Part shown: positions 19,106 through 33,415 of the stretch, in pieces
Layout of the letters: each line of letters begins with the position of its first letter
How positions within the stretch are numbered: the stretch's first letter is position 1
Source: a virus
Taxonomy: Duplodnaviria; Heunggongvirae; Uroviricota; Caudoviricetes
Reading direction: 5' to 3' (one strand)
Virus record (IMG/VR): IMGVR_UViG_2802429217_000005
Coordinates: 1-38,049 of that record
Length of the DNA stretch: 38,049 nt
Program-made: the position numbers and the translations under genes
The notes under the pieces: model-generated
What the model was told of the DNA's origin: nothing
The model's database searches: none
What the model saw: the letters and a program-made list of their open reading frames with translations, nothing else

Positions 19106-20191
19106 TTAGCTCCTGTTCTTATCTAATTGTGCATTTCGCAATTTATCGTTCAGCACCAATATTTCACCAACTGTTTGTTCAAAACGCCCGGACTCAAGTT
19201 CAACCCCAATCGTGCGACGCCCCAATCCCATTGCTGCTTTTATTGTTGCCCCCGATCCCATAAAAAAATCCGCAACCACATCCCCCGGACGACTGCTGGC
19301 AGAAATTATCTGACGCAACATATCCGCCGGTTTTTCGCAGGGATGCTTACCCGGATAATACTGTACGGGCTTATGCGTCCAGACATCCGTATAAGGAACG
19401 GCGGCCGATACAGAAAAATAACGCCGCAGAGATTTGTATTCCTCAAGCAGACTGGCATATTGCCGGTTCAGTTCACTGTATGTGCTGACCAGCAGTTGGT
19501 GTGGCGTTGCCAGCTCCCCACGCTGGTGTTTTTCTTCTGCAACACGCGCGAACAGCGCCTGCAGTTTTCTGTAATCAGCTTCGTTCGGTAACTGCCACTG
19601 ACTGGTACCAAACCAGTGCGACACCATGTTTTTCTTTCCGGTGGCTTCCGCTATCTGTTTGGACGTTATTCCCAGTGATTCACGCGCATCACGAAAGTAA
19701 AAAATCAGCGGGGCCATGACGTGTTGTTTAAGCTCGCGCTCCTTTGCCGCATAGCCGGCATTTTTTGGCTGATATGGCCCCTGATAATGTTCGGCAAACA
19801 GAATGCGCTCTGTTGCCGGGAAATACGCCCGCAGGCTTTCTTTGTTGCACCCGTTCCAGCGTCCGGACGGCTTCGCCCAGATAATGTGGTTCAGCACATT
19901 AAAGCGCTCACGCATCATGATTTCGATATCAGATGCCAGGCGATGACCACAAAACAGGTAAAGACTTCCGGCAGGCTTCAGTACCCGCCAGAACTGAGCC
20001 AGACACTGGTCCAGCCATTTCAGGTAATCATCGTCTCCCTTCCACTGGTTATCCCAGCCCTCGGGCTTCACTTTAAAATATGGCGGGTCTGTGACTATAA
20101 GATCGACAGAGTTTTCCGATAAGGTCTGGATAAATTCCAGGCAATCGGTGTTGATTAACTCACAACTGGATATTTTTACAGTATCAACCAT
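19106..20191 (-). CDS. orphan DNA methyltransferase (N6-adenine/N4-cytosine class, DPPY motif)
   Basis: 361-aa ORF with motif IV DPPY near the N-terminus (LIVTDPPYF) and the AdoMet-binding motif near the C-terminus (DFFMGSGAT); no adjacent restriction endonuclease gene recognised. Confidence 0.85.
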   Translation of the reverse strand: MVDTVKISSCELINTDCLEFIQTLSENSVDLIVTDPPYFKVKPEGWDNQWKGDDDYLKWLDQCLAQFWRVLKPAGSLYLFCGHRLASDIEIMMRERFNVLNHIIWAKPSGRWNGCNKESLRAYFPATERILFAEHYQGPYQPKNAGYAAKERELKQHVMAPLIFYFRDARESLGITSKQIAEATGKKNMVSHWFGTSQWQLPNEADYRKLQALFARVAEEKHQRGELATPHQLLVSTYSELNRQYASLLEEYKSLRRYFSVSAAVPYTDVWTHKPVQYYPGKHPCEKPADMLRQIISASSRPGDVVADFFMGSGATIKAAMGLGRRTIGVELESGRFEQTVGEILVLNDKLRNAQLDKNRS

Positions 20192-20331
20192 AGATCAATA
20201 AGCACTTCTCTGATAGGCTCATACCGCTTTTGCGCAAAGCGGATGGGCCTGAGGTTTGCTTGTGACCCCGATTCATGAGCAGATGGCTGGCAGGTGCCGC
20301 TAACACCCACCAGCCGCCCATTACCACAAAG

Positions 20332-20355
20332 TAAAAAGCCTTCACTGCGGAAGGC
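20332..20355 (-). terminator. candidate intrinsic terminator between the winged-helix gene and the methyltransferase gene
   Basis: On the minus strand: GCCUUC-CGCAGU-GAAGGC followed by UUUUU, overlapping the stop of the 65-aa ORF. Confidence 0.5.
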
Positions 20356-20539
20356 GTCTGTAACAACCGAACTGATAATCTGCCAGACCCGCCATAACAA
20401 GCTGGGTCAGTATTAACTGACAGCGTTCGCGTGAAAGGTAAGTATTCTGCGCAATTTCCCCAACTGTTGCCGGTTCAGTGACGCTTAATTCATTAAACAC
20501 CACTCTGGCTGTTTCTGTCATATCCTGCTGTTTTAGCAT
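20342..20539 (-). CDS. small putative winged-helix DNA-binding protein
   Basis: 65-aa ORF; ATVGEIAQNTYLSRERCQLILTQLVMAGL resembles a MarR-like winged-helix recognition region; family not recognised. Confidence 0.4.
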   Translation of the reverse strand: MLKQQDMTETARVVFNELSVTEPATVGEIAQNTYLSRERCQLILTQLVMAGLADYQFGCYRRLPQ

Positions 20540-20712
20540 GTCTTTTTCTCTTTATTGGTTAACGTGACATACCAATAACTCTTGTCGAAGAAGCCAGCAA
20601 GCTGAAAGACCGGTATTAATAACCACCTGCACATTTTATGTACCGAACCATTTTTCTGGCATAAAAAACCTCTCAATGGCGGGCGGTAAAAATCTTTGTT
20701 ACTCAAGAAATT

Positions 20713-21426
20713 TTAACGCACTCTGACTGTATTAATTTCAAAATCATTAATATTTCCGCTATTAAATATAACGAATTTCTTACTCCCACTCCTGTATGAT
20801 TTCGATAACACCAGACGATCATCATAACGCGCAATAATGTAATACCATACATTCTCATAGTGGATCACCTGATATTCCCTCTTAAACTGTGGTTTGTACC
20901 AACCGGCAATAAGAGAGAATGCCCAGAAATAAATCATAAACCCAGCCATCATGAACTCAATTCGGTGATGGCGAATAAAAGACATTTCCGAAAAACATTT
21001 GACTGAAACAAGTCTTCTTCCAGACCTGACAAAAAGCGTGATTGTAAAGGCAGCAAGAATGCAGAAAATCAGTACATCTGGCTCAACATGCTGATGAATT
21101 ACCGAAAACTCCAGAACAGGTGGAATAAAAAGCAGCAATATCGCGAGAAAAAGCCGGATAAAACTCAAATTTTGTATATTGCGCTTTTGTTTTATGCCCA
21201 AAAAGAAAACAATACCAACTCCCCATCCAATAAGGAATATAACGATAACTGTCACAGCATAAAACAAACTTCGTGCAACATCATCGACACCAGCCCCGAC
21301 AACCCACCATGGAAAGCCATAGTAAAATGAAGTACCCCATCCATAGAAATAAGCGCTTCCCCATCCTAGACAGCCCATATAAGCAACAAAAAGTGAAGAG
21401 TTTCTGAGCAGAGCACTGTCATTCAT
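20713..21426 (-). CDS. multi-pass membrane protein of unknown function (late-region moron)
   Basis: 237-aa ORF with about five hydrophobic Trp/Tyr-rich segments; visibly AT-rich DNA; first gene downstream of the candidate tR'. Confidence 0.55.
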   Translation of the reverse strand: MNDSALLRNSSLFVAYMGCLGWGSAYFYGWGTSFYYGFPWWVVGAGVDDVARSLFYAVTVIVIFLIGWGVGIVFFLGIKQKRNIQNLSFIRLFLAILLLFIPPVLEFSVIHQHVEPDVLIFCILAAFTITLFVRSGRRLVSVKCFSEMSFIRHHRIEFMMAGFMIYFWAFSLIAGWYKPQFKREYQVIHYENVWYYIIARYDDRLVLSKSYRSGSKKFVIFNSGNINDFEINTVRVR

Positions 21427-21565
21427 AGTAACACCATTAACAACTCAAAAATATCAACACATATTACATAACAAATTGGATTCCATGCAGTCAAGGGGCG
21501 TCATTGATGGAGAAAGTATTGGCACAATCGTCATCACGTTTAATGTCTATGCCATTTTTTGGGGG

Positions 21566-21593
21566 GATAAAAAACCCGCTCGGTCGCGGGTTT
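21566..21593 (-). terminator. candidate tR'-type intrinsic terminator downstream of Q
   Basis: Minus-strand AAAACCCGC-GACCGA-GCGGGUUUUUUA: GC stem flanked by an A-tract and a 6-U tract. Confidence 0.6.
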
Positions 21594-21639
21594 TACTAGC
21601 TTTGCCATCACGTATAAAAACAGCAAAATATCAGATTTA

Positions 21640-21675
21640 CACGAAATATATGCGTTTTAATCTACTTTTGCAATA
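21640..21675 (-). promoter_or_regulatory. candidate late promoter pR'
   Basis: On the minus strand: -35 TTGCAA (21667-21672), 18-bp spacer, -10 TATATT (21643-21648); begins 9 nt after the Q stop and about 50-75 nt upstream of the terminator. Confidence 0.35.
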
Positions 21676-21680
21676 CTTTG

Positions 21681-22346
21681 CTATGAAAATGCCGCCTTTT
21701 GTTTTGAACGTGTTCTCTCCACTAACAATAAAGCTTCACTATCCAGCCGATGAAAAATGTGTTTCATTGCAACCCAGTGACCAGTAAATGTCTTGGACCA
21801 GTTTTTGGTTGTTACTCCCACCAGTAACGCCAGTTCCTGGTATTCATAACCTTCCCCACCAAAAAGCTCAGCTTTTACCGCCTGCGCCGCCAACCAGATC
21901 AACGTCTTCAGGCGCACCAGAGTTTTTCCTGCAATTTTTCTGGTACCGGATTGAGCATTAAATTCAGTCCACGCCCACTGCGTTATCGCGATCTTATACT
22001 CCCAGCAAATGCTACCGCTGTAACACCACAGCACCCACGCCTTCTGATGCTCTTCAAGAGACAGAACGGCGCGTCGCCATGATGATGTCGAAAACTCAAC
22101 CGGACTGACCAGGGCAATTGATGAACCTTTCGCCAGCGATTGCTTTCCCGGGATCGGTGGATTATCCAGCGTTACTATTTTTCCAGTGACCTTATCGCGG
22201 TACCGGATTTTTTTACGTCTGTAACGCCCTGTATTGAACATGGCATTCTCCTGCCAGGCTTCAAGCTGACCTTTTGTTGCTCCACTCAAATCAGCGGTGG
22301 CGATCGTGAGCTGCTCACGCACAAACTGTAAATACTGGTTATTCAT
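21681..22346 (-). CDS. putative late antiterminator Q (non-lambda Q family)
   Basis: 221 aa from the ATG at 22346, which overlaps the rusA stop; position directly after RusA and before a promoter-terminator pair matches Q; family identity is from recall only. Confidence 0.5.
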   Translation of the reverse strand: MNNQYLQFVREQLTIATADLSGATKGQLEAWQENAMFNTGRYRRKKIRYRDKVTGKIVTLDNPPIPGKQSLAKGSSIALVSPVEFSTSSWRRAVLSLEEHQKAWVLWCYSGSICWEYKIAITQWAWTEFNAQSGTRKIAGKTLVRLKTLIWLAAQAVKAELFGGEGYEYQELALLVGVTTKNWSKTFTGHWVAMKHIFHRLDSEALLLVERTRSKQKAAFS

Positions 22347-22702
22347 GCGCACTCCAGTTCTGTGATTTTTATCCCCAGCCGACCACCGGGAATAACCTGA
22401 CCGCGCATAATATTAACTTCATCAAACTGCTCATCGTCGATAAGCAGTCCCGCATGTGTCAGTGCATCCAGTGGTGCTTTCAGAATATTGTCCAGGTCAC
22501 GACGGCGCTTATCCGGCGGCTCTGCAATAATTTTTATTGCCAGCCTTCCGGACAGATTTAATTTCAGTCGCTGCTGGCGAACAATAAGCGCCACATCCCG
22601 GCGATAACGCTCCCCTGCTTTTGATACAAAATATGTGCTGCCACGACGACGCCAGTAGGTATTCACCGTCGGAGGGTAAGGCAAAACAAATTCTATCCCC
22701 AT
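22343..22702 (-). CDS. rusA: Holliday junction resolvase RusA
   Basis: 119-aa ORF with the RusA signature (LPYPPTVNTYWRRRG ... PDKRRRDLDNILKAPLDALTHAGLLIDDEQ); AGAGG Shine-Dalgarno. Confidence 0.9.
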   Translation of the reverse strand: MGIEFVLPYPPTVNTYWRRRGSTYFVSKAGERYRRDVALIVRQQRLKLNLSGRLAIKIIAEPPDKRRRDLDNILKAPLDALTHAGLLIDDEQFDEVNIMRGQVIPGGRLGIKITELECA

Positions 22703-24503: not shown

Positions 24504-24659
24504 TTACTCCTCAGGTTCGTAAGCTGTGAAGACAGCGACCTCCGTTTGGCTGGTTCGGATTCGTACCTCACAGAGATCTTTCCTCGTTACCAGTGCCGTC
24601 ACAATGACGGTTAAACAGATGACGATCAGGGCGATTAACATCGCCTTTTGCTGCTCCAT
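24504..24659 (-). CDS. hok: Hok-family type I toxin (HokD/RelF-like)
   Basis: 51-codon ORF missed by the >=60-aa track: MEQQKAMLIALIVICLTVIVTALVTRKDLCEVRIRTSQTEVAVFTAYEPEE, near-identical to E. coli HokD as recalled; AGGAG 9 nt upstream. Confidence 0.85.
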   Translation of the reverse strand: MEQQKAMLIALIVICLTVIVTALVTRKDLCEVRIRTSQTEVAVFTAYEPEE

Positions 24660-24841
24660 AGCCTGCTTCTCCTAGCCTTTCGGCACGTAAGAGGCTAACC
24701 TACATTTGTGAGACATAGATTGGGCCTCAGATTAATGTTAAGCGTCTTGCAGGACGCTTAATGTTAACTGTGCTTTTCTTTATCTGCCTTTTGGTGTTCA
24801 TGCCTGAGACAGATAGCCTCAATCACCCGCAGCGATTTTAC

Positions 24842-25168: not shown

Positions 25169-25959
25169 TGGGTCCATTGATTATAACTGTGATTCTCGTG
25201 TGTGGTTTTTGGTACACCGAGAATCACTATCAATCGAGAATTCATCACGCAAGAACAAATGGGTGGTCATCCTATTTCTACGTTGCAATGCATGGGTGTC
25301 GTTTTGTTGCTCAAGGATTTCTTTTGACGCTCGGGATCTACATGCTTTTCTGGCTACTGAACTCTATCCCACACATAATCAATATTTTCCGAGACAAACC
25401 TATAGAATGGCATTTTTTTAATTGGTTACTTGAAACCAAAGTGATGGAATTACCACTTTTTGCTGTCATCACCATCATTTTCGCTTGTTGTATTGCTTAC
25501 TCTGAGGGGGTGGATGCGCGAAAAGAAATGGAGAATGAAGAAGCGCGCCAAAAGGCTTACAGGGAGATGGCATCAAAAGATTCACTAGAAAACCTATTGA
25601 TCCAAGCCATTGACACAGAGATGCTGATTTTTGTAACACTAAAATCCAGAAAAGTATATATCGGGTATGTGTCAGCACCACGTGTTGAATTCCACAACAG
25701 TGCGCATCTTGAGATCATACCATTCATTAGTGGTTACAGAGATAAGGACTCACTACGCTACATAGAACAACACCGATACTATGATCTCTATCTATCCAAA
25801 GAAATCACATTTGAGTCCGAACCATTAAATTTACAACATTTTCGACACGTCATTCCTATCGAACAAATTGAAGCGATCTCGCTCTTTGATGAAAGCACGT
25901 ACAGCGATTTTGAAAGATTTTCCGAGCCAATGCCTGACACAAAGCAATTACCAGTATAG
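25168..25959 (+). CDS. membrane protein with three N-terminal TM helices and a ~150-aa C-terminal domain, unknown function
   Basis: 263-aa ORF, translationally coupled to the upstream gene; AAGGAAG Shine-Dalgarno; visibly AT-rich; no family recognised. Confidence 0.6.
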   Translation: MGPLIITVILVCGFWYTENHYQSRIHHARTNGWSSYFYVAMHGCRFVAQGFLLTLGIYMLFWLLNSIPHIINIFRDKPIEWHFFNWLLETKVMELPLFAVITIIFACCIAYSEGVDARKEMENEEARQKAYREMASKDSLENLLIQAIDTEMLIFVTLKSRKVYIGYVSAPRVEFHNSAHLEIIPFISGYRDKDSLRYIEQHRYYDLYLSKEITFESEPLNLQHFRHVIPIEQIEAISLFDESTYSDFERFSEPMPDTKQLPV

Positions 25960-25961
25960 TA

Positions 25962-25976
25962 TTACCCTCCCCTCTA
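25962..25976. repeat. right copy of the 15-bp direct repeat TTACCCTCCCCTCTA
   Basis: Exact match to 24842-24856, 3 nt after the stop of the 263-aa gene. Confidence 0.8.
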
Positions 25977-26282
25977 ACGATATACTAAAAAGCCGCTACA
26001 ACTGGACTGCCCCCATAAAGTTGGACAGTTCATGTTAAGCGGCTTTCAGGGCTTGACCCAACAGAAGTTAGATTGTAAGTATCCCGCTTAAACGGACCAT
26101 CTGGTCTTTGTTCCACGGTGACGTGCTCATACCTCCTGAAATGTGGGAGATTTGAGTATGGTTGTCCCTTATGAGCGAAATTTGCACGAAGCGGATAAGT
26201 TACCGGAGCTGAAGGTCCGCTGTGAGCGAAGAGCGGACCTGAGATTGTGGTATGCTAATTTATGGGGATCAGGTCAATTGTA

Positions 26283-26975
26283 TTAGTTATCTTTTTGCTT
26301 TTCTTTATCCCATTTCTTTGCAGTGGTCTGATACCACTCTTCACGCACTCGTTGTTCCTCGGCTCTGTCACTTGAATTATAGTTGTCCGTTTTAATTTTT
26401 TTGCTTCCATGGGAAATCGGCCTCCAGTCTTCTCTAATCTTTTTCACCTGCTCGGCTATCTGTGTCATTGGACTCCTTGCACCTAAGTAGCTAACCCCCT
26501 CGAAAGAAGCCATATCATAAGAATACTCATTCCGCTCTCTTTCAGTTGAGCCCGGCTGTTTAGACCAACTAATACTAACAGAATAAACTTGATCTTTAAT
26601 CTGTTCATACTTACAAAGACTGCTGTTGAGCGAATGGCCGTTTTTTAATACGCTAACCTTGCTAAATGGTATACCTATATTTTTTCTATGTTCAGCATTT
26701 ACCAGTGGGGGATTAAATCCGATTTCAATATCATAGGCTGGGGCATTTCCGGTATTAGCAATATTGATATCAAAATAAAAAGCAGCCCAAGAATTTGGTT
26801 CAAGAGTCACAACGACGTGAGGTTGAACTGATGCGTCAACCATCCTTTTTGTCTCGTCTGCTAATAGCCTTGTTACTCTCCACAAGAAAAATGTAGCAAC
26901 TGCTGTTAGCAATGCTGCCAAAGCGGAGATAAGTGTGCTTACAGTGTTTATATGCTCTGCGATAAATTCGATCAT
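26283..26975 (-). CDS. N-terminally TM-anchored protein of unknown function
   Basis: 230-aa ORF with one hydrophobic segment (residues ~10-32) and a Lys/Glu-rich C-terminus; AAGGA Shine-Dalgarno; convergent with the repeat-bounded operon. Confidence 0.55.
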   Translation of the reverse strand: MIEFIAEHINTVSTLISALAALLTAVATFFLWRVTRLLADETKRMVDASVQPHVVVTLEPNSWAAFYFDINIANTGNAPAYDIEIGFNPPLVNAEHRKNIGIPFSKVSVLKNGHSLNSSLCKYEQIKDQVYSVSISWSKQPGSTERERNEYSYDMASFEGVSYLGARSPMTQIAEQVKKIREDWRPISHGSKKIKTDNYNSSDRAEEQRVREEWYQTTAKKWDKEKQKDN

Positions 26976-27466
26976 GAGTTGTCCTTGGGGGCGTACTAAT
27001 TGTTTTCAAGACTAAAATAGCGCCGGGCTTGAAAAATTGCACACTTATGGTTCGATTTACCTCAACAGTTAAGGCTTCAGCTTCCCCCATGCACCTCACC
27101 CAGCTCAAGACTGTATGATGTCTGACAAAGAACTTACTGACACTTGAAAACGAGGTAGCGTCTAGGATTTCTCGTAGGGGAAGGATTGAATACGAAGCCT
27201 GTATATTGCTCCGCGAACGCTGCTGAGAGCAGTTTAAATGTTGGGCGTTTATGTGGCCTTTCACTCACCAGCATGAGTTCAATGCCTGTGAATTACCGAC
27301 AACAATATAAAGGGGGTGGCATCATCATATATCCAAGGTAGAGTCAAATCCTTTAACTGGTTTTATGATCAGCGTCAATTGTTTAATTATTGAACGTTTA
27401 CGAAGCGGCACGGGAGTCATATAACTAATGGGCAGGTATAAGCCTGTATCACGAGGAATCAGTAAA

Positions 27467-33357: not shown

Positions 33358-33415
33358 TTTTCTGGTGACGTTTGGCGGTATCAGTTTTACTCCGTGACTG
33401 CTCTGCCGCCCTTTT
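33358..33415 (+). ncRNA. dicF: DicF small RNA
   Basis: TTTCTGGTGACGTTTGGCGGTATCAGTTTTACTCCGTGACTGCTCTGCCGCCC followed by TTTTT matches the recalled 53-nt DicF sequence and its terminator. Confidence 0.8.

Follow-up and report, generated by a model that had tools for sequence, protein, structure and literature searches.

Between the Q antiterminator gene and a DNA methyltransferase (MTase) gene of a lambdoid prophage, a gene for a multi-pass membrane protein stands directly before one for a small winged-helix protein, and the question that this locus raises is whether the two make up one functional unit or are neighbours by accident. The region belongs to a viral sequence of 38,049 nucleotides (nt) assigned to the Caudoviricetes (IMG/VR record IMGVR_UViG_2802429217_000005), which at its full length is referred to here as the window, and all genes of the interval lie on its minus strand. 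An earlier note on this DNA had proposed a single unit closed off by terminators. We favour instead, with a probability of roughly 0.6, a reading in which the late-operon leader of the prophage holds two independent modules: a cargo cassette with the membrane protein gene, which would be a moron, and, separate from it, a module that contains the winged-helix gene (20342-20539) and the MTase gene (19106-20191).

Linkage was counted in 80 viral contigs that carry an identical winged-helix gene, 71 of which are long enough downstream. The MTase gene follows the winged-helix gene in 69 of these 71; among the 11 contigs without an MTase call, nine end too early, one has a partial match and one continues into other DNA. 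In contrast, a gene from the family of the membrane protein (TfpB, see below) lies upstream in 12 of the 80 contigs, where it is found behind two types of Q. The deposited phages give the same picture: in megablast comparisons their match is limited to that end of the query which holds the winged-helix gene and the start of the MTase gene, and in all phages examined the MTase gene begins ~140–150 nt past the winged-helix gene while the upstream content varies. Between Q and its terminator tR' on one side and the winged-helix gene on the other there is nothing in SfV, in Morganella phage IME1369_02 or in Providencia phage PSTRCR_117lys, no annotated gene in 1720a-02, a 138-amino-acid (aa) open reading frame (ORF) in mEp460, a 408-aa ORF in phiP27, and two reverse-strand genes in WGPS2.

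The pairing of winged-helix and MTase genes persists in the Morganella and Providencia phages at 42–48% identity of the winged-helix protein. The leader of the winged-helix gene (20540-20662) is likewise conserved: the stretch between tR' and the start codon is shared with SfV, mEp460, phiP27 and WGPS2 and partly with the Morganella phage, and a scan finds in it a weak promoter-like site, ATGCCA-18-TAAAAT. TfpB-family genes, for their part, occur without a winged-helix gene in O157:H7 and O145 strains, in the Stx2j phage, in strain HM670, in Yersinia, and on plasmids and islands. The adjacency of the membrane and winged-helix genes is therefore apparently an accident of neighbourhood and not a unit, and the winged-helix gene appears to belong with the MTase gene. 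The earlier note had itself named two findings that would speak against its proposal: a lack of linkage in other genomes, which is what the 12 of 80 contigs display, and membership of both proteins in known late-function families, to which neither belongs.

The edges of the cassette can be read from homology breaks among contigs. Contig L078 has a Q of the same type and no cassette; there, homology ends at window position 21591 and restarts at 20668, an exact indel. Two contigs with an SfV-type Q (L068 and L106) share the window from 21590 through 19170. These breaks therefore place the 0.92-kb cassette at approximately 20669-21590. Upstream it is bounded by the intact tR' and downstream by a second, tR'-like terminator copy that has decayed (20663-20687, minus strand, ACCGCCCGCCATTGAGAGGTTTTTT). 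The cassette has a GC content of 0.393, compared with 0.484 for Q, 0.495 for the MTase gene and 0.492 for the window, as the earlier description of the DNA as AT-rich would have it. It is an insertion of moron type, both in being present or absent between conserved phage genes and in its base composition unlike that of its flanks. The interval behind Q had been pointed out as a moron hotspot, and the membrane gene indeed behaves as cargo in a slot whose contents vary.

Three terminators, intact or not, bear on whether the two genes could nonetheless be one system. tR' itself (21566-21594, minus strand, ~90 nt past the Q stop codon) has a 9-bp G+C-rich stem followed by U6 and a folding free energy (dG) of -14.2 kcal/mol (z -4.17); none of 200 shuffled sequences folds as well, and the element, proposed earlier at 21566-21593, is by its stable stem, U tract and better-than-chance fold an intrinsic terminator. 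The copy at 20663-20687 aligns with intact terminators at the same place in SfV, mEp460, phiP27, WGPS2 and contig L065. In the window it has no convincing fold (z -1.0), it is decayed in all 12 cassette-bearing contigs through two different sets of changes, and no convincing terminator follows the membrane gene. The third element, which the terminator scan recovers, is a hairpin that spans the stop codon of the winged-helix gene and runs into UUUUUACUUU (20333-20355, minus strand). Earlier taken as an intrinsic terminator at 20332-20355, it does exist as a hairpin with a U tract, but it is weak: its stem has 6 bp, dG is ~-9 kcal/mol, and 38 of 200 shuffles fold as well (z -0.83). The stem is kept in mEp460-type phages by a different sequence without the U tract, and the hairpin is absent in the Morganella phage.

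One two-gene system, for example a membrane effector with its own regulator, bounded by tR' and this hairpin, would fit several of these features: the two genes share an orientation and are separated by 173 nt, tR' is a strong terminator, the one between them has decayed in every cassette-bearing contig by two sets of changes, and a hairpin with a U tract closes the winged-helix gene. However, such a system is hard to reconcile with a cassette found upstream in 12 of 80 contigs against an MTase gene found downstream in 69 of 71, with TfpB genes that lack a winged-helix gene in most contexts, with the pairing of winged-helix and MTase genes in distant phages that have no cassette, and with the weakness of the downstream hairpin. 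We consider it very unlikely.

The reading of two independent modules gives the cassette gene a promoter of its own, and a candidate for it, which the earlier note had suggested from the box TTGACT, is present. The motif, sigma-70-like in form (21465-21494, minus strand), consists of TTGACT at 21489-21494, an 18-nt spacer and TGT-TATGTA at 21465-21473. TTGAC[TG] and TTTGTTATG are retained upstream of family members whose flanking DNA differs, in contexts as unrelated as an O157-type phage, the Stx2j phage, a heat-labile toxin (LT) plasmid and Escherichia species. The Escherichia copies share TTGAC[TG], 18 nt including a TG, and then TATG.., with Shine-Dalgarno-like purines before the start codon.

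In order of transcription, the interval opens with the Q gene (21681-22352, minus strand, 223 aa), which matches PF06323 (E 2.7e-88) and is labelled Q in near-identical genomes. Behind it, a consensus scan finds a putative late promoter, TTGCAA-17-TATATT (21645-21673, minus strand, 9 of 12 matches), which fits pR' because it lies between the Q stop codon and tR'. The leader RNA ended by tR' would be ~70 nt long, and this short transcript, over 21570-21641, resembles isrJ and isrK, two RNAs of prophages, at subthreshold scores (E 0.28 and 0.52), consistent with a pR'-tR' leader. An E. coli chromosome 99.7% identical over the region has both the 237-aa and the 65-aa ORF annotated as hypothetical protein by the Prokaryotic Genome Annotation Pipeline, and Q is annotated there too; homologues of each in several genera support both as real genes. 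A further ORF of 57 aa (20533-20706) was rejected, having no family match and sitting in the conserved leader.

The 237-aa product (20713-21426, minus strand) had been described as a multi-pass membrane protein, and hydropathy and the helices of an AlphaFold model agree. It matches phrog_1521 (PHROG 1521, function unassigned; E 9e-87), and 105 of 105 close homologues, including one 98% identical to it, carry the precomputed Pfam annotation PF27470, named TfpB, which is assigned to the window protein through these homologues. Moreover, it aligns at full length with the TfpB ORF of Moraxella bovis (29% identity over 233 aa, E 8e-28). By these similarities it is assigned to the TfpB family (PF27470/PHROG 1521). 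A profile search of 1.84 billion representative proteins recovered only 72 relatives, many of them nameless; the named ones outside the enterobacteria come from Neisseria and Pasteurellaceae, a genome scan adds Moraxella, and neither Pseudomonas aeruginosa nor Dichelobacter nodosus is among the named organisms behind the full-library profile matches. The 'TfpB' of Acinetobacter is an unrelated ATPase that shares the name only.

The AlphaFold model, of low confidence (predicted local distance difference test, pLDDT, 64), has five long helices and a C-terminal beta domain of ~55 residues in five strands, and hydropathy gives four strongly hydrophobic segments and a weaker N-terminal one. Basic residues in alternate loops (~79–88 and ~134–154) fit the positive-inside rule. 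The protein would thus be oriented with its N-terminus inside, five helices, a periplasmic loop and a small periplasmic C-terminal beta domain; the loop predicted to be periplasmic is conserved and rich in aromatic residues and glycine (AYxYGWG...YYGFPWW).

TfpB-related DNA was found by blastn, with a sensitivity of 65–70%, in 1,197 of the 5,426 complete E. coli genomes searched, and 460 of these 1,197 contain most of the gene. In phages the gene is always the first after Q and tR', and it stands behind at least four kinds of Q. In this window, Q is of the PF06323 type and the winged-helix gene follows; in O157:H7 EDL933 and O145 strains DUF3927 and lysis genes follow, in strain 2012C-4221 a tRNA and then stx2j, and in strain HM670 four tRNAs and then a holin, while in Yersinia the gene stands behind a PF06530-type Q. 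The gene for the lipid A deacylase LpxR lies just upstream of Q in the TfpB-carrying O157:H7 and O145 prophages (L009 1667-2626, L003 3863-4823). In Citrobacter rodentium the TfpB-family gene directly adjoins lpxR, an adjacency that suggests a prophage remnant.

TfpB-family genes also lie outside phages: on an enterotoxigenic E. coli (LT) plasmid beside eltAB in divergent orientation, on an invasion plasmid amid insertion sequence (IS) elements, on a Salmonella IncFII plasmid, and as a pseudogene in an island of strain 536. Members near toxin or virulence loci (L011 1986-4713, L012 4001-6309, L218 2501-3217, L028 4974-8017) are this LT plasmid copy, the one upstream of a tRNA and stx2j, the invasion plasmid copy and one in Glaesserella parasuis, which stands beside three reverse-strand ORFs that, judged by eye, resemble cdtCBA. 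Toxin adjacency (stx2j, eltAB, cdt) was set aside as a functional clue because this hotspot is the one that these toxins also occupy and because eltAB is transcribed divergently. In Pasteurellaceae and Neisseria a lone TfpB-family gene sits amid housekeeping genes, often in several copies per genome.

This distribution bears on the possibility that the membrane protein has a late lytic function, in lysis timing or in membrane events before lysis, and is expressed only through Q antitermination. In phages its gene invariably comes directly behind Q and tR' and ahead of the lysis genes; this place, like the predicted location of the protein in the inner membrane, would suit such a role. Against this, sister phages whose Q and lysis genes are the same lack the gene, it occurs on plasmids, on islands and in Pasteurellaceae, Neisseria and Moraxella chromosomes without phage genes nearby, and the promoter-like motif is conserved outside phages, all of which make a lytic role unlikely.

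The founder of the family points in another direction. In M. bovis the relative is a 261-aa ORF between two inverted pilin gene segments, beside piv, and in M. lacunata it is flanked by a pilin gene on one side and an inverted pilin segment on the other, beside an IS110-type recombinase; we take this position to be that of tfpB in the pilin inversion region described in the 1990s. The M. lacunata ORF is 195 aa long, compared with 261 aa in M. bovis, and in strain NCTC10359 the pilin/tfpB region is present in both orientations on two contigs (L035 and L036), as an invertible segment predicts. The Moraxella proteins are similar in length to the window protein and share with it an N-terminal motif (AYxYGWG...YHGYPWW...IARSL), whereas their gene lies inside an invertible pilin segment beside piv and the window gene is prophage cargo without a pilin gene in 38 kb.

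The membrane protein might accordingly be supposed to act on type IV pili or on DNA uptake, either assisting or blocking pilus assembly. Besides the place of the founder gene in M. bovis and M. lacunata, the range of relatives is suggestive: those recovered outside the enterobacteria belong to Moraxella, Neisseriaceae and Pasteurellaceae, groups that use type IV pili or pseudopili for DNA uptake. However, pilin genes adjoin the TfpB-family gene only in Moraxella; no pilin N-terminal motif was found in the 38-kb window or within 5 kb of 22 non-Moraxella loci, and the literature searched gave no TfpB function. The pilus accessory proteins TfpY, TfpZ and FimB-like of P. aeruginosa and D. nodosus are comparable in having ~235–245 aa, N-terminal membrane helices, a periplasmic C-terminal part containing beta structure, as predicted here, and genes that adjoin pilin genes, as Moraxella tfpB does (PMC11841053). 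By their published description, TfpY and FimB differ in having three helices and a large two-sheet periplasmic domain, compared with the five helices and 55-aa beta domain modelled here (PMC11841053). A pilus role for the prophage protein is, on balance, improbable.

A clue to the use of the slot comes from its other occupants. In phiP27 the same position holds L22 (L002 5556-6785), which matches the PADLOC model PD-Lambda-1 over its C-terminal half (E 2e-89); its record describes it simply as a GIY-YIG nuclease family protein. PD-lambda-1 now goes by the name SNIPE; it is a nuclease bound to the membrane, and it cleaves the DNA of phages while they inject it (PMC13190303). In contig L065 (1116-2361) two intact tR'-like terminators enclose the cargo of the slot, which is a 94-aa protein plus one of 265 aa that has N-terminal membrane helices; neither protein matches Pfam or PADLOC. 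Like these, the TfpB-like protein is cargo between tR' and the winged-helix/MTase module, and like SNIPE it would be located in the membrane; SNIPE, however, has a nuclease domain, whereas in the TfpB-like protein no enzymatic domain can be recognised, and PADLOC-DB 2.0 gives it no match to a defence model. A PADLOC run had been suggested by the earlier note, and neither of the two proteins came out as a defence match.

SNIPE-like cargo in the same slot is the one positional reason to suppose an anti-entry role, and by this analogy our best guess, a tentative one, is that the TfpB-like protein may hinder the entry of incoming phage DNA, that is, cause superinfection exclusion. Lambdoid phages carry morons and exclusion genes for membrane proteins, such as lambda bor and lom, HK97 gp15, and P22 SieA and SieB. 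The cassette resembles such morons in several ways: its one gene is AT-rich and has its own candidate promoter, sister phages may carry or lack it, and its product is a predicted membrane protein. The proteins named have no sequence relation to the TfpB-like protein, and exclusion would be carried over from them by analogy only.

The 65-aa product, on the other hand, belongs to a protein type whose fold is predicted with confidence. It matches phrog_331 (E 1.4e-37), and its AlphaFold model (pLDDT 90.2) has the canonical order H1-b1-H2-H3-b2-b3 of a winged helix, as the earlier note had recognised. TM-scores of 0.7–0.8 relate it to winged-helix domains of IclR, MarR, SelB and S-adenosylmethionine (SAM) methyltransferases; by sequence and fold together, the best solved relatives are N-terminal winged-helix domains of SAM-dependent methyltransferases, followed by IclR, MarR and SelB. 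Pfam matches to TrmB and MarR all fall under the gathering score, TrmB (PF01978) at 18 bits against a cut-off of 25.6, so that the database label 'TrmB family' is a loose one. PADLOC-DB 2.0 gave only a chance-level match (SWIM_XIII, E 0.0035).

The spacer of ~150 nt between this gene and the MTase gene is conserved far better than the winged-helix protein, and over 20192-20329 (minus strand) conservation exceeds that of either flanking gene, with ~40 nt invariant from E. coli to the Morganella and Providencia phages. Its fold has a dG of -63.6 kcal/mol (z -4.84), matched by none of 200 shuffles. A consensus structure of 33 pairs has 97.8% of its cells paired, compared with 33–52% when the partners are slid against each other; two pairs have a compensatory change and 12 a one-sided change that preserves the pair. 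The fold predicted from the single sequence pairs bases just before the MTase AUG, and this pairing is missing from the consensus structure. A search of Rfam found no match at the gathering threshold, and up to E 5 only chance-level noise within 20192-20341. Conservation together with the retention of base pairs suggests that the spacer is maintained as RNA, on evidence that is thin as yet, and makes it a candidate new cis-regulatory RNA in the 5' untranslated region of the MTase mRNA. A 45-codon ORF that begins at an ATG inside the spacer and overlaps the MTase start in the window was rejected as coding, because a 1-nt indel breaks its frame in SfV and a stop ends it after 16 codons in the Morganella phage.

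The spacer contains a long hairpin (20285-20315), whose 5' arm carries a perfect Chi octamer, GCTGGTGG (20307-20314, minus strand). Variants with a perfectly complementary 3' arm (L045-type contigs) contain Chi in both orientations. SfV, mEp460 and phiP27 have a further Chi in the leader of their winged-helix gene; it is mutated to GCAGGTGG in the window, where eight Chi octamers are observed in all against 1.4 expected.

The same spacer could be conserved as DNA, as an operator plus Chi, in which case the winged-helix protein would be a plain DNA-binding transcription factor acting on the operator GGCTGGTGGGTG-N7-CACCTGCCAGCC or on other phage or host promoters. The protein has a canonical winged helix with IclR and MarR domains among its best structural matches, the 12-bp inverted repeat has 10 of 12 symmetric positions, as is typical of an operator for a dimer, one arm of the palindrome contains the Chi octamer, and ~40 invariant nt fit a sequence-specific site. 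Several features are at odds with this: the two asymmetric positions of the palindrome would be G.U pairs in RNA and are Watson-Crick pairs in other variants, the outer helices hold the two compensatory and 12 one-sided pair-preserving changes, the whole 139 nt fold far better than shuffles, and no second copy of the half-site lies near any promoter in the window. A purely DNA-level role is possible, though it is the less likely case.

What the module would control is a beta-class N6/N4 DNA methyltransferase of 361 aa, encoded on the minus strand. It matches PF01555 (E 7e-43) and the PADLOC model MTase_II (E 3.5e-152), with the motif order of the beta class (DPPY at residues 44–47; FMGSG, for FxGxG, at 310–314), and it shares 85% identity with the 1720a-02 enzyme, which has been named as very similar to M.EcoGII (PMC5778455). 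With M.EcoGII and M.EcoGI it shares beta-class motif order and prophage location (PMC5778455); the likeness to M.EcoGII is judged through the 1720a-02 enzyme and not against M.EcoGII itself. The enzyme is, by this relation, M.EcoGII-like, and a non-specific activity is a prediction only. M.EcoGII, a non-specific adenine methyltransferase, stays silent in the lysogen and is harmful once it is produced (PMC5778455), and homologues are likewise silent in O111 strains (PMC6602927). In the literature searched, no control of M.EcoGII-type enzymes by a neighbouring gene is described.

The arrangement recalls com-mom of phage Mu and the C proteins of restriction-modification systems: in those systems, as here, a small regulator gene (in the window a presumed one) precedes a harmful DNA-modification gene expressed late, and a structured mRNA leader lies between regulator and modification gene. 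The regulators are of different kinds, since Com binds RNA through a zinc finger and the C proteins have an Xre-type helix-turn-helix, whereas the window protein is a winged helix with two cysteines. Moreover, in contrast to com-mom, the consensus structure here leaves the MTase start codon uncovered, and regulation would be by analogy only.

Under the reading of two independent modules, the cassette gene would be a moron or lysogenic-conversion gene, transcribed in the lysogen by a promoter of its own and reached in addition by read-through from pR' once Q acts, and its TfpB-like product would act at the envelope from the inner membrane. The winged-helix gene, spacer and MTase gene would form a three-part module, which in phages without the cassette comes directly after tR'. 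In it, the likeliest task of the winged-helix protein and the spacer is to keep a potentially toxic adenine MTase in check until the late lytic phase; the protein might bind the spacer in its DNA or in its RNA form, and the weak hairpin (20333-20355) may add insulation in the lysogen. Taken jointly, a Com-mom-like post-transcriptional gate on the MTase, made of winged-helix protein and leader, and a TfpB-like membrane factor against entry form a combination that we regard as doubtful.

Several observations weigh against this reading or its parts. Since the terminator between the two genes has decayed, the membrane and winged-helix genes may share a transcript, which leaves room for functional coupling; the earlier claim of a single unit thus keeps possible co-transcription in its favour, although the conserved pairing of winged-helix and MTase genes speaks against the unit as such. 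A generic promoter scan missed the TTGACT promoter, and its -10 element is poor (TATGTA). The exclusion role has slot position and membrane location as its sole grounds, and lone chromosomal relatives in several copies are atypical of exclusion genes. The membrane protein has no match in the local Pfam copy, in NCBIfam or in PADLOC, nor did a profile search of PDB sequences find one, and fold searches against solved and viral structures were uninformative; the literature searched is silent on TfpB function, as noted, and no experiment or annotation was found that gives a function for any TfpB-family protein. In the spacer, covariation is thin, most pairs being invariant and the structure having been derived from the same sequences in which changes were counted, and the Chi site in the hairpin could explain part of the invariance at the DNA level.

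Elsewhere in the window, two RNAs score above the Rfam gathering threshold, the sok antitoxin RNA (24657-24826, minus strand, 81.8 bits), with a partial hokD annotated near the match in a near-identical genome, and DicF (33360-33411, plus strand, 76.7 bits). In the early prophage region of a near-identical E. coli record (L001 13486-14836), a gene annotated as zeta toxin family protein stands before one for a hypothetical protein of 208 aa; by offset the two fall at window ~25685-27035 (plus strand), and they may be another cargo pair.

Parts of this picture are known already. Prophage cargo at this hotspot is familiar, the family has Pfam and PHROG entries without a function, and the arrangement itself is present in complete E. 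coli genomes, where a megablast of 20200-21700 returned 2,577 records, 179 of which cover at least 80% of the query. Of more interest are the links: a gene of the Moraxella pilin switch is connected to prophage and plasmid cargo of enterobacteria, and the small 'TrmB-like' gene of Stx phages, SfV and their relatives is apparently part of an MTase module and not of the cargo upstream. The slot between tR' and this module holds cargo that differs by phage (SNIPE-like, other membrane proteins, TfpB-like), which makes the TfpB-like genes reasonable candidates for phage exclusion. These genes are found beside stx2j and eltAB and on invasion plasmids, and blastn detects related DNA in about a fifth of complete E. 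coli genomes, O157:H7 included. Furthermore, M.EcoGII-type enzymes, which are in wide use as tools, may be preceded by a control module of which we found no description in the literature searched, and the conserved winged-helix gene with its folded leader suggests a testable mechanism by which such an MTase would be controlled.

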